A stretch of DNA of 45,251 nucleotides from Escherichia phage K1E. Of the stretch, positions 14,865 to 19,102 are shown piece after piece (the first letter of the stretch is position 1; the number at the start of each line of letters is the position of its first letter). The stretch lies in the sequence record NC_007637.1; one strand, 5' to 3'. Both the position numbers and the translations under genes were made by a program. The notes under the pieces are model-generated. The model made no database searches. It had not been told where the DNA came from and saw nothing but the letters and a program-made list of their open reading frames with translations.

Positions 14865-15671
14865 ATGGCACGTGGTGATTTCGATTTTGGTGCTTCCGTA
14901 TCTAAAGCTGAAGGTAAAGTCTTTAAGAATCCAGAAGTAGGTGATCATGAAGCAGTAATCTCTGGCATCATTCATGTTGGTTCCTTCCAAGACATCTTTA
15001 AGAAAGGTAATACCACTGAAGTTAAGAAGCCAGCAAACTTTGTTCTGGTTAAGATTGTCCTGATGGGTGACGATGACAAGAACGAAGATGGTTCTCGCAT
15101 GGAACAATGGATGGCTGTGCCTCTGAAGTCTGGTGATAAGGCAACACTGACTAAGTTCCTGAATGCAGTTGACCCTAAAGAGTTGCTGGGTGGCTTCGAT
15201 GATTTTATCGGTGAATGTCTGACTGCAACTATGGTTGGCTCTGGCGACAAGAATGATGATGGTACTTTCAAGTATGTTAACTGGAAAGGCTTTGGCGGTA
15301 TGCCTGATAAGTTGAAGAAGCTTGTACTGGCTCAGGTAGAAGAGGAAGGTCTGTCTATGACAGGTCATATCACCTTCGACAAGCTGACCAAAGAAATCAT
15401 TGATGACATCCCAGCTAACTTGGTACGTCAATACTTCCTGAACGAGACACCTCGTGGTAAGAACCTGTCTGTTGCTGGCTCTCACGTAGAAGCTATTATC
15501 AAAGCTGCTCGTGAAGAAGACCCTGAATGGAAGAAGGCTAAGAAGAAAGACGAGGAAGATGCTACCCCAGCTAATCGTAAATCTCTGGATACTGGTGAGT
15601 CTGTTCCGCAGGAAGTACCTGAAGCAGAAGATACGCCTGCACCGGAGATGGATGAGGACGCGGAATATTAA
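14865..15671 (+). CDS. Hypothetical replication-associated protein with acidic C-terminal tail (268 aa); candidate ssDNA-binding protein
   Basis: AGGAGA RBS; C-terminus ...PEMDEDAEY (acidic, aromatic last residue) resembles the DNA-polymerase-binding tails of T7 gp2.5 and gp4. N-terminal DFDFGASVS motif is shared with the exonuclease. Confidence 0.4.
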   Translation: MARGDFDFGASVSKAEGKVFKNPEVGDHEAVISGIIHVGSFQDIFKKGNTTEVKKPANFVLVKIVLMGDDDKNEDGSRMEQWMAVPLKSGDKATLTKFLNAVDPKELLGGFDDFIGECLTATMVGSGDKNDDGTFKYVNWKGFGGMPDKLKKLVLAQVEEEGLSMTGHITFDKLTKEIIDDIPANLVRQYFLNETPRGKNLSVAGSHVEAIIKAAREEDPEWKKAKKKDEEDATPANRKSLDTGESVPQEVPEAEDTPAPEMDEDAEY

Positions 15672-15931: not shown

Positions 15932-15954
15932 ATTTACTGGACACTATAGAAGAG
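15932..15954 (+). promoter_or_regulatory. SP6-type phage promoter (+1 G at 15949)
   Basis: ATTTACTGGACACTATAGAAGAG; perfect core. Confidence 0.8.
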
Positions 15955-16004: not shown

Positions 16005-16376
16005 ATGTTCAAGATTGAAACTATCGTAAACCGTGTTGTTAAAGGTGCTGCTCTGGTATCCGTTGAGTCTTTCATTATCGTCGATGAAGCTGATCAACTG
16101 GTAGCTGGTACTAAGGCTTACGATACCCGTGAAGAAGCTCAGGCTAAGATTGACAGCATGGGTAACTTCGCTGCTGGTCTGGAGTTTGCTCGTGCTTGCT
16201 TCCCTGAGCAGGCTGACAAAGCCCAGATCGGTAAGGCTAACATCGTAGCTGAATATCTGGATTGGATTGCTGCTGGTAAACCAGTGAAAGAAGTTAAAGC
16301 TGCTGAAGAAGCTGAAGCTCCGGCAGTAGAAGTGTCTGCACCGGAAGCTCCGGTTAGCGAAGAGGAAGAGTTTTGA
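16005..16376 (+). CDS. Abundant small protein with acidic C-terminal tail ending in Phe (123 aa); candidate ssDNA-binding or polymerase accessory protein
   Basis: Strong RBS AAAGGAGA; codon usage typical of a highly expressed gene; C-terminus ...APVSEEEEF. Confidence 0.4.
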   Translation: MFKIETIVNRVVKGAALVSVESFIIVDEADQLVAGTKAYDTREEAQAKIDSMGNFAAGLEFARACFPEQADKAQIGKANIVAEYLDWIAAGKPVKEVKAAEEAEAPAVEVSAPEAPVSEEEEF

Positions 16377-16434
16377 TAATAGCAGGTGTAGCCTCTGTTA
16401 GTCCTAGTTGACTATCACGCTCACCTCATCTAAT

Positions 16435-16470
16435 GCCCTGTCTGCCTTAGTGTAGGCAGGGTCTTTTGCG
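16435..16470 (+). terminator. Candidate hairpin terminator
   Basis: ctgcct-tagtgt-aggcag stem-loop in a GC-rich context, followed by ggtcttttg. Confidence 0.35.
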
Positions 16471-16493
16471 TAATAGTTATTGGAGAATGAATT

Positions 16494-16766
16494 ATGCCGA
16501 CTATTGAATCTCGAATTGAACTGGACATTAGCTACAATGCAATCACCAGACAGTATATTGGGGTTGCCTATGATTACAAAACTGGTGAGAAGCTAGTGGA
16601 GGTGAGACAATGGGATGACTATTGGTTAAGACAGAACCTCCATGATGCGGTGTCCTCCTTCTTGAAGGAGTGGCCTACATGCGACCAAACTTCGACTTCG
16701 GAGCTACAGTATCGGAAGACAATAATCTCATCCTGTGGCCAACTGAAGGTAATCGAATCGCTTTAA
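16494..16766 (+). CDS. Hypothetical protein (90 aa as read); 3' end overlaps the exonuclease gene by 88 nt
   Basis: ATG with GGAGA upstream; the true C-terminus is uncertain. Confidence 0.3.
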   Translation: MPTIESRIELDISYNAITRQYIGVAYDYKTGEKLVEVRQWDDYWLRQNLHDAVSSFLKEWPTCDQTSTSELQYRKTIISSCGQLKVIESL

Positions 16767-17704
16767 TAGATGCTGATATGTTACCCTACATCGTAGGTTA
16801 TACAATCAGTGACATGACTTATTTACGAGCCACAACTCGTGTTAAGTCAGGACAAGTCCCATCAATCAAAGATACACCTGAGTGTAAGCAAGCATGTGAC
16901 CGTGTGAACTCCTTGCTTAACTCTTGGGTGTATGCAGCAGAGTGTGATGCAGCTAAGCTATTCATGACGAAATCAGAAGCTAACTTCCGTGTCCGCCTAG
17001 CATTCACAAAGCCTTATAAGGGTCAACGTAAGACCGAGAAGCCTCCGTTCTTCTATGAATTGCGAGAGCATCTCTTAGAGGTTCACGGTGCAATCTTGGC
17101 AGATGGTGAGGAAGCTGATGACCTCATGAGCATCGCACAATGGGATAGCCACCGCCGCTTCCAGCAAGATACAGGTAACGAGTTCGCTATCGGTAGTCCA
17201 GAGCATAAAGCATTCTCTGATACTTGCATCGTTTCCTTAGATAAGGATTTGATGATTGTTCCCGGTTGGCATCTACAGCCGGGTCAAGAGAAGAAGTGGG
17301 TAGAGCCTATGGGCTGGCTTGAGCTACGCCGTAAGGTTAATGGGCAAGTCAAAGATCTAAAAGGTGCTGGCCTCATGTTCCACTATGCACAGATGATTAT
17401 CGGTGATGATATTGATAACTATGCTGGCATACCAGGTCGTGGTGCTAAATATGCCTATGATCTTCTCAAAGATTGTAAGACAGAGAAAGAGTTGTACATG
17501 GCAGTGCTGGGTGCTTACAAGGCTAAGTTCGGGCATGGACAAGTTAAAATTAAGAATTACCGAGGTGGTTATCGTATCGGCAAAGCCTTTGACCTAATGC
17601 TTGAGTGTGGTCGCTTAGCTCACATGGCAAGATTCAAGGGTGATATATGGCGAGCCGATAAGAACCCAATCTTGTGGGGAGATGAAGGATGGCTACAAAG
17701 TTAA
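16679..17704 (+). CDS. 5'-3' exonuclease (FEN/T7 gp6-like, 341 aa)
   Basis: Track ORF starts at GTG 16670; first ATG is 16679 with AGGAG upstream; acidic active-site stretch ALIDADMLPYIVGY; lies in the replication module. Confidence 0.7.
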   Translation: MRPNFDFGATVSEDNNLILWPTEGNRIALIDADMLPYIVGYTISDMTYLRATTRVKSGQVPSIKDTPECKQACDRVNSLLNSWVYAAECDAAKLFMTKSEANFRVRLAFTKPYKGQRKTEKPPFFYELREHLLEVHGAILADGEEADDLMSIAQWDSHRRFQQDTGNEFAIGSPEHKAFSDTCIVSLDKDLMIVPGWHLQPGQEKKWVEPMGWLELRRKVNGQVKDLKGAGLMFHYAQMIIGDDIDNYAGIPGRGAKYAYDLLKDCKTEKELYMAVLGAYKAKFGHGQVKIKNYRGGYRIGKAFDLMLECGRLAHMARFKGDIWRADKNPILWGDEGWLQS

Positions 17705-18102
17705 AAGCATCTGAAGTTGCTGCTTATAAGAAAGAGTTGCTAGAGAAGCAGGGCTGGAAATGTCCTATTTGTGGAGCACCTCTTAAAGCAGTGGCCGAGA
17801 TTAACCGAGTACTAGACCATTGCCATCGCAGAGGTTACTGTAGAGCGGTACTCTGTCGTGGGTGCAATGGCGGTATCGGGAAGATAGAAAACCTAGTAAA
17901 GACTTATTGTAAGGCTGGGGATAATGAGTATTTCATTATCAAGACATTGCGAAACATTGCAGATTATCTAGACTTACATAGTAAGCCTCAGACTGATAAG
18001 ATTTATCATAAACATCAAACGGAGGCAGAGAAGCGCGAGGCTAAGAACCGTAAGGCACGCCTTGCTTATGCAAGAAAGAAGAAGGAGGTTAAAGTTGGGT
18101 AA
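17689..18102 (+). CDS. Endonuclease VII-like junction-resolving nuclease (137 aa)
   Basis: CPICGAPL...LDHCHRRGYCRAVLCRGCNGGIG matches the T4 endonuclease VII zinc/His-Me finger pattern. Confidence 0.7.
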   Translation: MATKLKASEVAAYKKELLEKQGWKCPICGAPLKAVAEINRVLDHCHRRGYCRAVLCRGCNGGIGKIENLVKTYCKAGDNEYFIIKTLRNIADYLDLHSKPQTDKIYHKHQTEAEKREAKNRKARLAYARKKKEVKVG

Positions 18103-19102
18103 GCTTCGCAGCTTGTACAAAGACTCCGAGGTACTTGATGCAATCGAGCAAGCTACCGACGAGAAAGGTAATGTTAATTACAATGAGATGGCACGGATAT
18201 TATCGTGCCACCCTGTGGGTAAGAAGATTACCCGCCAGTTGGCTAGATACTGGCATGGTCAATTCAAGAAGACCAAGAAGAATGGTGATTACTACCAGAC
18301 CCTTCTGCAAGAGGATAAGCGTATCAAGGAAGAGCGTAAGCTCAGGACTCCTGACCGCTACGAGGATTTGGCTATTGTACCATTGCCTGACTCGCCTCAT
18401 CGAAGTGTACTGGTAATCCCTGATACCCATGCACCGTATGAGCACCCAGATACCTTAGAGTTCCTTGCAGCAGTGGCAGCACGTTACCGTCCTGATACGG
18501 TGGTTCATCTTGGAGATGAGGCAGACAAACATGCCTTATCGTTCCACGATTCGGACCCAAATCTGGACAGTGCTGGCATGGAGTTAGAGAAGGCCCGTGT
18601 CTTTATGCATAAATTACACAAGATGTTTCCTGTGATGCGCCTGTGTCATTCTAATCACGGCTCTATGCACTTCCGTAAGGCAAGCGCCAAAGGTATTCCT
18701 GTACAATATCTGCGTACCTATCGTGAAGTCTTCTTTCCGCATGGGGGTGGCGACCAGTGGGATTGGCAGCATACACACGTTCTTGAGTTGCCGAATGGTG
18801 AACAGGTTGCATTTAAGCATCAACCCGCAGGCTCAGTCTTAGCAGATGCAGCGCATGAGCGCATGAACTTAGTGTGCGGTCACTTGCATGGTAAGATGTC
18901 GGTGGAGTATGCACGTAATACACATGAACAGTATTGGGCTGTGCAGGGCGGCTGTTTGATTGATGAGTCATCTCGTGCATTTGCCTATGGTCGTGAGTCC
19001 AAATACAAGCCAGCATTAGGTTGTGTGGTTATTCTGGAGGGTGTGCCGCACATTGTCCCGATGCAGACCAATAGTGACAATCGCTGGATTGGTAAGATTT
19101 AG
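18095..19102 (+). CDS. Calcineurin-like metallophosphoesterase (about 335 aa); start uncertain
   Basis: Motifs VIPDTHAPYEH, HLGDEADKH and CHSNHGS. Track ORF starts at TTG 18062; proposed start is TTG 18095 (AAGGAGG 8 nt upstream); the first in-frame ATG is at 18188. Confidence 0.55.
   Translation: MGKLRSLYKDSEVLDAIEQATDEKGNVNYNEMARILSCHPVGKKITRQLARYWHGQFKKTKKNGDYYQTLLQEDKRIKEERKLRTPDRYEDLAIVPLPDSPHRSVLVIPDTHAPYEHPDTLEFLAAVAARYRPDTVVHLGDEADKHALSFHDSDPNLDSAGMELEKARVFMHKLHKMFPVMRLCHSNHGSMHFRKASAKGIPVQYLRTYREVFFPHGGGDQWDWQHTHVLELPNGEQVAFKHQPAGSVLADAAHERMNLVCGHLHGKMSVEYARNTHEQYWAVQGGCLIDESSRAFAYGRESKYKPALGCVVILEGVPHIVPMQTNSDNRWIGKI

Follow-up and report, generated by a model that had tools for sequence, protein, structure and literature searches.

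The overlap considered here lies in a 45,251-nucleotide (nt) stretch of Escherichia phage K1E DNA (NC_007637.1), referred to below as the window. A small open reading frame (ORF) of 90 amino acids on the plus strand (16494–16766, from an ATG to a TAA stop at 16764–16766) crosses the start of the gene for a 5'–3' exonuclease (16679–17704, plus strand, 341 amino acids; the counterpart of K1-5 gene 20 and SP6 gp21). Quite probably this is a 3'-elongation overlap, in which a small gene without a stop codon of its own carries a passenger tail, the exonuclease is made separately, and no frameshift fusion of the two is produced. A first-pass annotation of the window had reported an 88-nt overlap with the small ORF reading through the exonuclease start in another frame, and both statements were confirmed. 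Measured from the exonuclease ATG at 16679, the overlap is exactly 88 nt (16679–16766, plus strand) and comprises exonuclease codons 1–29 plus one nt, over which the small ORF runs in the +1 frame; in other words, the exonuclease frame is the small-ORF frame minus one. If the exonuclease began at GTG 16670, the overlap would be 97 nt.

The proposed mechanism is a simple one. Ribosomes translating the small gene, which has no stop codon of its own, would continue past the exonuclease start in the +1 frame to the first chance stop. The position of that stop would depend only on the synonymous codons that the exonuclease uses at a few Leu, Ile and Val positions; here the TTA-ATA at exonuclease codons 29–30 provides it, giving 88 nt. 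The exonuclease would be translated independently, starting at ATG 16679 behind a strong ribosome-binding site of its own. The overlap may well have arisen, and persisted, by 3'-elongation under no selection or only weak selection.

Conservation and Length of the Overlap

Comparison of the junction across related genomes found it conserved. The relatives counted were those in which the small gene runs from start to stop and lies immediately before the exonuclease; in all 29 distinct relatives of this kind, at exonuclease identities as low as 47%, the arrangement and its phase are unchanged. Because arrangement and phase are shared by every one of them, the overlap is real and more than an accident of annotation, and because the sharing extends to 47% identity, the overlapping state is old. 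The length, on the other hand, varies among the relatives from 52 through 55, 88, 91, 94 and 118 to 139 nt.

The overlap had also been called unusually long, which is true in one sense and not in another. In the annotated K1-5 genome, the 88-nt overlap is the longest of the 19 overlapping junctions among 51 (the next ones are 38, 29 and 23 nt). Measured against chance, the length does not stand out. When the exonuclease codons were redrawn as synonymous codons according to the codon usage of the window, and the first stop in the small-ORF frame was recorded, the median overlap was 52 nt and the probability of 88 nt or more was 0.18. Since 18% of the synonymous redraws reach at least this length, the 88 nt are unremarkable in themselves.

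The simulated stops also fall at the same hot spots as the observed ones. The first of these is exonuclease Leu17–Ile18 (CTC ATC in the window, 16727–16732, plus strand), where a synonymous NTA or NTG codon at Leu17 would stop the small ORF; stops there give overlaps of 52 or 55 nt, 52 nt being the commonest in the simulation. The second, which gives 88 or 91 nt, is Leu29–Ile30 (TTA ATA, 16763–16768, plus strand), where the codon junction supplies the TAA stop of the small ORF. Where a relative has CTC ATA G at this place, the stop comes 3 nt later and the overlap is 91 nt. Leu17 has been changed synonymously to an NTA codon, leaving a tail of only 17–18 residues, in lineages that carry several different types of the small gene (CrRp3, L047, L053, P0005, P0007, P0014, P0017, P0018 and P0022, the L and P numbers being our own handles for loci).

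The behavior of the junction fits the model of Fonseca, Harris and Posada (2013), according to which 3'-elongation to the first in-frame stop within the neighbor explains the lengths of unidirectional overlaps without selection (PMC3887535). As in that model, the upstream gene runs to its first in-frame stop, and the codon content of the neighbor sets the length. There is one difference: overlaps in the phase seen in the window ("phase 2" in PMC3887535) usually collapse to the 4-nt ATGA form. The overlap at this junction stays long because the second codon of the exonuclease starts with C or T in all relatives. Among viruses in general, overlaps above 50 nt are the smaller share, at 16% of the instances, yet they occur in 61% of double-stranded DNA virus genomes (Schlub and Holmes 2020, PMC7017920).

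Two metagenomic cases have an altered frame. In L010, a 1-nt deletion at about position 2580 shifts the frame of the small ORF. In P0023/L064, a run of seven G residues (733–739) at the ribosome-binding site puts the small ORF into the other exonuclease frame. The latter was not relied on as a natural case of other-frame entry into the exonuclease gene, given the G7 run, the 2.6x coverage and the possibility of an assembly error.

The Start of the Exonuclease Gene

The product of the downstream gene matches PHROG 107 with E = 5.7e-73, aligned from residue 4, and the Pfam family 5_3_exonuc (SAM fold) at 5.5e-05, which is below Pfam's cut-off; the gene is annotated as an exonuclease in K1-5, SP6 and fTuEco01. 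One way out of the overlap offered by the first-pass annotation was that the start of this gene is wrong, and the evidence speaks against it. The exonuclease frame is open from 16646, and ahead of the conserved N-terminus it offers just two start codons, GTG 16670 and ATG 16679. An AAGGAG ribosome-binding site (16665–16670, plus strand), which also encodes residues K58–E59 of the small protein, precedes ATG 16679 with a spacer of 8 nt. The same order of AAGGAG or GAGGAG, then TGGCCTAC, then ATG is found in nearly all relatives. In tblastn searches covering 26 loci and then more distant ones, the alignments begin at exonuclease residue 1–2, and the aligned start is an ATG (GTG in L053) after AAGGAG or GAGGAG. 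The N-terminus MRPNFDFGATVSEDNNLILWPTEGNRIALIDAD aligns across 11 lineages.

Some relatives leave little room for any start further upstream. An in-frame stop stands directly before the exonuclease start in L053, and only one codon lies between such a stop and the start in L055; in L044, the stop of an inserted HNH gene overlaps the exonuclease start as ATGA. In addition, the ratio of nonsynonymous to synonymous differences per site (pN/pS) over exonuclease codons 2–29 is 0.22–0.26 in the exonuclease frame, indicating purifying selection across the overlap. On the strength of the conserved ATG with its AAGGAG, the upstream stops in L053, L055 and L044, and this coding-type evolution of codons 2–29, ATG 16679 is the correct start.

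Two other codons were considered and rejected. GTG 16670 lies within the ribosome-binding site and is not conserved, being ATG, TTG or absent in relatives. The next in-frame ATG, at 16778, has no ribosome-binding site, and a start there would lose the conserved 33 N-terminal residues, including the LIDAD strand, which would carry catalytic aspartates, as in FEN-type nucleases generally. It is worth pointing out that some public annotations do place the exonuclease start downstream, by 19 codons in CrRp3 (L022, 1743) and by 33 codons in K1-ULIP33 (L023, 1806), and so show no overlap. Because the conserved N-terminus is lost in this way, these starts are likely to be mis-annotations by gene callers, apparently shifted in order to avoid the overlap.

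The Small Gene

The small ORF begins 8 nt after a GGAG ribosome-binding site (16482–16485, plus strand), and the surrounding stretch TAGTTATTGGAGAATGAATTATG is nearly invariant in relatives, in agreement with the good site first assigned to it. The protein matches PHROG 10319 with E = 2.7e-41, its residues 1–90 aligning to profile positions 1–101 of 101, and a tblastn search recovers it, at identities between 99% and about 30%, in 119 phage records, with hosts that include Escherichia, Salmonella, Klebsiella, Citrobacter, Pectobacterium, Proteus and Raoultella. For the part that precedes the exonuclease ribosome-binding site, the ratio of nonsynonymous to synonymous substitution rates (dN/dS) is 0.14–0.45 at dS of 0.4–1.9, within types of the small gene. 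AlphaFold2, run with a 25-sequence alignment, gives residues 1–60 a predicted local distance difference test (pLDDT) score of 82–96, as a short helix, three strands, and a helix at 42–59.

The PHROG match, the 119 records, the dN/dS values and the confident fold together indicate that the small ORF is a real, fast-evolving accessory gene, the counterpart of K1-5 gene 19. The opposite reading, that it is nothing more than a chance open frame in the spacer and the +1 frame of the exonuclease, is exceedingly improbable. It would agree with the omission of the ORF from about half of the public annotations (for example fTuEco01, ACG-C91, SP6 and PP1), with the absence of a Pfam family match, with the frameshifted copy in L010 and with the loss of the body in L047. 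A chance frame, however, would not be expected to remain free of stops in over 100 genomes with identities as low as 30%, to show dN/dS values of this kind at near-saturated dS, to keep its ribosome-binding site and start, or to yield a confident fold prediction. Both the small protein and the exonuclease are presumably made; a literature search on the expression of the two genes found nothing relevant.

The alignments divide the small protein into three parts. A near-invariant start, MPTIESR, is followed by a hypervariable middle of 50–65 residues, of which there are at least six types sharing only a strand-strand-strand-helix pattern, and then by a constant end, L(K/E)EW followed by PTCDQTSTSELQYRKTIISSCGQLKVIESL. 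The K-E-W codons (AAG GAG TGG) double as the ribosome-binding site of the exonuclease and the first part of its spacer. The end is constant because it is the exonuclease ribosome-binding site, the spacer and codons 1–29 read in the +1 frame. The selected and folded part, or body, is residues 1–60 (MPTIESR...LKEW; 16494–16673, plus strand), a hypervariable cassette with conserved ends. According to the model, the functional part of the protein would thus be about 60 residues, with three beta strands and one helix ending in ...LKEW.

As to function, a search of Pfam, PADLOC and PDB profiles gave no match to the small protein, only generic fold matches, and the label "DNA repair protein" that its counterpart bears in K1-5 found no support in the same searches. 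A profile search of 1.8 billion protein representatives returned only members of the same phage family, together with short spurious stretches in long repetitive proteins. The variability of the body would fit a role in interaction with the host.

A Probable Passenger Tail

Beyond W60, the small ORF reads on through residues 61–90 (PTCDQTSTSELQYRKTIISSCGQLKVIESL) to its TAA stop (tail, 16674–16766, plus strand). Over the overlap, pN/pS in the frame of the tail is 1.09, against 0.22–0.26 in the exonuclease frame; such estimates are biased in overlapping frames, and it is the contrast between the frames rather than the absolute values that is used here. Changes in the tail are radical (SS to CC, I to T) at places where the exonuclease changes between Ile and Leu or is changed silently. 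The AlphaFold2 pLDDT of the tail is about 48. In L044 and L045, the small ORF ends in LKEW followed by TCNSKNTCEQPLLLTKKVLVASCGKLEQREEFV, an unrelated tail which overlaps the HNH gene by about 100 nt. The tail is thus not selected, or at most weakly, and is probably, judging from the model, a disordered appendage.

The first-pass annotation had suggested that the true C-terminus of the small protein is shorter than the ORF. Taken literally this fails, as there is no stop before 16764. It is right in another sense: the conserved part with the confident fold reaches only to W60 (16673), no selection is seen on the tail frame, and several relatives have shorter tails.

Could the tail be a functional C-terminal extension, for example a constant region, a degradation tag or a binding peptide, and the overlap a case of true dual coding or overprinting? 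The near identity of PTCDQTSTSELQYRKTIISSCGQLKV in Vectrevirus and SP6-like phages, despite their differing cassette bodies, points in that direction, as does the lowered synonymous divergence of exonuclease codons 2–29 between these two groups. The selection pattern does not: the tail frame is relaxed and the exonuclease frame constrained, radical tail changes accompany conservative or silent exonuclease changes, the tail has been truncated repeatedly and replaced completely in L044/L045, and the model has low confidence in it. Neither do the deep lineages, among which synonymous sites are not suppressed. The synonymous sites of the exonuclease in the overlap are the second codon positions of the tail; they differ at 187 of 391 comparisons (0.48) in codons 2–29 and at 1805 of 3358 (0.54) elsewhere. 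Dual coding would combine suppression of synonymous change in the older frame with conservation in the new one, and this combination was not found. What was found is the pattern of 3'-elongation, with purifying selection in the downstream frame, none in the upstream frame, and chance stops that vary among relatives. A functional tail is therefore very improbable.

Frameshifting and Translational Coupling

The first-pass annotation had further proposed that the translation of the two genes is either recoded or tightly coupled. Programmed −1 frameshifting within 16646–16766, fusing the small protein to the exonuclease, would be possible in principle, and might take place alongside the separate products, as with gene 10A/10B of T7. 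Relative to the small ORF, the exonuclease frame is indeed at −1, and it opens at 16646, before its ATG is reached; no relative departs from this phase, and the window contains an internal sequence resembling a ribosome-binding site, of the kind that can stimulate frameshifting in dnaX. The T7-like −1 frameshift fusions (10A/10B, and the "possible gene 5.5-5.7" of the T7 record) are similar in having same-strand frames offset by −1 and an upstream ORF that passes the downstream start. They differ from the window, in which no slippery site or stimulator was found and in which a separate strong start is present.

The signals that such frameshifting would use are indeed missing. The 121-nt stretch where both frames are open contains neither an X XXY YYZ slippery heptamer nor a homopolymer run of four or more. 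In the two-frame stretches of 13 lineages, no slippery heptamer or homopolymer run is shared, and only weak A-site-only candidates occur, at differing positions. No stimulatory structure was detected around the exonuclease start: the region 16630–16720 folds no better than its shuffled versions (z = −0.43), and Rfam has no match there. Finally, a stop shuts the exonuclease frame just before the start in L053, and one codon before it in L055, so that a fusion containing the full exonuclease is impossible in these lineages. Recoding can accordingly be set aside, and a frameshift fusion is hardly credible.

Coupling calls for a more nuanced answer. Termination-reinitiation is unlikely, because this mechanism needs a stop near the start and the stop of the small ORF lies well past it: 85–88 nt beyond the exonuclease ATG here, and 52–139 nt in relatives. 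Interference with, or unmasking of, the exonuclease site by ribosomes reading through it may still occur, though the overlap can be accounted for without any coupling of the two translations or interference of one with the other. In the window-type cassette, a CTCCTT (16655–16660) is exactly complementary to the AAGGAG of the exonuclease, with a 4-nt loop between them; it is absent from the other types of cassette.

Several observations weigh against an overlap that persists by chance alone. In the simulation described above, some lineages have longer open frames than expected (P = 0.054 for SP6, 0.061 for PP1, 0.017 for K13PH07C1S and 0.051 for L055), and a Fisher combination of seven lineages, calculated by hand, gives p of about 0.03, the lineages being partly dependent on one another. 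These values hint that early stops are mildly selected against. No lineage in which a small gene, complete from start to stop, adjoins the exonuclease on its upstream side ends that gene at or before the exonuclease start. Moreover, between Vectrevirus and SP6-like phages, synonymous differences in the exonuclease amount to about 0.12 in codons 2–29 and about 0.50 elsewhere, a low divergence that would also be expected if either the tail or the RNA were constrained. It was not accepted as proof of dual coding, as the phylogenies of cassette and backbone disagree and the signal is largely gone among deep lineages; it is attributed to cassette exchange through the flanks, as discussed below.

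These observations could be read to mean that the overlap is kept for regulation, with small-ORF ribosomes opening or occluding the exonuclease site and stops near the start being selected against. The mild excess of long open frames over the synonymous-codon expectation is the main reason for retaining this explanation. It is also compatible with a minimum overlap of 52 nt wherever the small gene lies directly upstream, with the read-through being retained even where an HNH gene is the downstream gene, with the 31-codon leader ORF (MPTIESR...) that still crosses the exonuclease start in the cassette-less L047, and with the ability of CTCCTT to pair with the AAGGAG site. The exonuclease, however, is equipped with its own strong site, the RNA around its start forms no structure that is significant or conserved, and the CTCCTT is confined to one cassette type. 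Exonucleases at 41–48% identity lack such an upstream ORF, and their junctions are ordinary or absent; genes 5.9 and 6 of T7 overlap by only 14 nt; and the position of the stop drifts freely, unlike that of a tuned coupling device. A regulatory overlap is, on balance, an unlikely explanation, though the least unlikely of the alternatives to 3'-elongation.

Cassette Exchange and a Homing-Endonuclease-Like Gene at the Junction

The body of the small gene has a history quite different from that of its neighbor. BP12B (L008) combines an SP6-like exonuclease (83% identity) with a window-type cassette at 96%, while L016 and L020 combine a Vectrevirus exonuclease (97%) with an SP6-type cassette. The exonucleases of L025 and L026 are one residue apart, yet their cassette bodies are only 32% identical. 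The body is thus a hypervariable cassette that is swapped between SP6-like and K1-5-like backbones. Such exchange must run through the conserved flanks and would homogenize them, and the flanks may well serve as its homology arms. Between the window and SP6, the block of low divergence ends at about exonuclease nucleotide 62, before the stop of the small ORF.

A homing-endonuclease-like gene has also entered the junction. In L044 (1022–1498), and also in L045, it is an HNH_3 endonuclease gene (Pfam, 7.9e-13) whose point of insertion is the exonuclease ATG itself. The inserted gene of L044 re-uses the AAGGAG site of the exonuclease and ends in ATGA on the displaced exonuclease start; the uninterrupted junction, without the insertion, reads AAGGAGTGGCCTACATGCGACC. 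Homing at this place could drive co-conversion of the adjacent cassette.

A more ambitious idea unites these elements. The stop-less 3' end of the small gene could be a selected design, a swappable slot between two conserved arms, one made up of the terminator, ribosome-binding site and MPTIESR and the other of the exonuclease start, with obligatory read-through setting exonuclease expression by interference or unmasking, and with the HNH gene driving exchange. We regard it as rather doubtful, slightly more so than a regulatory role of the overlap by itself.

The locus L047 (1457–1552) has no cassette, and its 31-codon ORF (MPTIESRYLIVSEVKCAHTSTSVRRYPKTTT) still reads 52 nt into the exonuclease gene. 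The site is either an empty site or a deletion scar; in either case, it shows that the body of the small gene is dispensable.

Known Systems and Practical Consequences

The gene pair with its 88-nt overlap is already known from K1-5. The RefSeq record NC_008152 annotates gp22 ("DNA repair protein", 273 nt, 15152–15424) and the exonuclease gp23 from 15337, with the same 88-nt overlap. This orthologous pair, gene 19 and gene 20 of K1-5, encodes a small protein and an exonuclease that are each 97% identical to those of the window, and the length and phase of the overlap and the flanking genes (gene 18 upstream, endonuclease VII downstream) are the same; nothing material differs. The UAB_Phi78 genome paper lists an equivalent pair, orf27 at 15165–15476 and gp21 from 15383 (PMC4837284).

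A more distant likeness is found in T7, where gene 5.9, like the small gene a small non-essential gene of an Autographiviridae phage, lies directly upstream of, and overlaps, the 5'–3' exonuclease gene 6. The likeness is one of gene position, and the T7 overlap is much shorter, at 14 nt. A gp5.9-like function for the small protein, namely inhibition of a host protein, would be speculation by analogy.

The overlap teaches nothing new about translation, and its value is mostly practical. The hypervariable, swappable body and the HNH insertion at the junction are more notable than the overlap, and the body is among the most variable and horizontally exchanged loci of the K1-5-like phages, which are used in therapy and engineering. 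For the annotation of this group, in which public records are inconsistent, the rule would be to keep both ATG 16679 (and its equivalents) and the small gene. Structural or functional work on the small protein should use only its first 60 residues or so.

Genomic Setting

The 2.2 kb around the junction share 99.7% DNA identity with Escherichia phage vB_EcoA_fTuEco01 (Vectrevirus) and 93–98% with K1-5, K1E and ACG-C91. By this comparison, the phage of the window is a K1-5-like member of the genus Vectrevirus, subfamily Molineuxvirinae, in the SP6/K1-5 branch of the T7 supergroup. The local gene order begins with a gene for a protein with an acidic C-terminus (14865–15671) and continues with an ORF of 72 amino acids, gene 18 (16005–16376), which is the upstream neighbor of the small ORF, the small ORF and the exonuclease gene, followed by endonuclease VII (17689–18102) and a metallophosphoesterase gene.

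Between gene 18 and the small ORF lies a terminator-like hairpin (16435–16469, plus strand), with an 11-bp stem and a 6-nt loop (16435–16462) followed by CTTTTGC. The region 16425–16500 folds at −25 kcal/mol (z = −3.1), and the structure is retained, with a different stem sequence, in Pectobacterium phage PP1 and in the Klebsiella and Proteus phages K13PH07C1S/PmP19 (L024–L026). It is probably a terminator or attenuator placed before the block of genes that includes the exonuclease.

The nearest promoter-like site upstream of the small ORF is TACTGGACACTATAG (15935–15949, plus strand), and the next site is at 19100; both have the form TAC(T/C)GGACACTATAG. The pattern TAGGNNACACTATAG, with at most two mismatches, occurs at 13 sites against 1.4 expected, and we presume these sites to be promoters from their likeness to the SP6 promoter. 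Because 19100 is the next site after 15935, the four genes in between (gene 18, the small ORF, the exonuclease gene and that for endonuclease VII) are probably transcribed together. At 16403–16423, CCTAGTTGACTATCACGCTCA resembles the 19100 site (TAGTTGACACTATAG) and is apparently decayed; it lies within an insert of about 57 nt that is present in only some Vectrevirus genomes.

The products of 14865–15671 and 16005–16376 both end in an acidic run with an aromatic last residue (...EMDEDAEY and ...SEEEEF, respectively), which may resemble the polymerase-binding C-termini of T7 gp2.5 and gp4.

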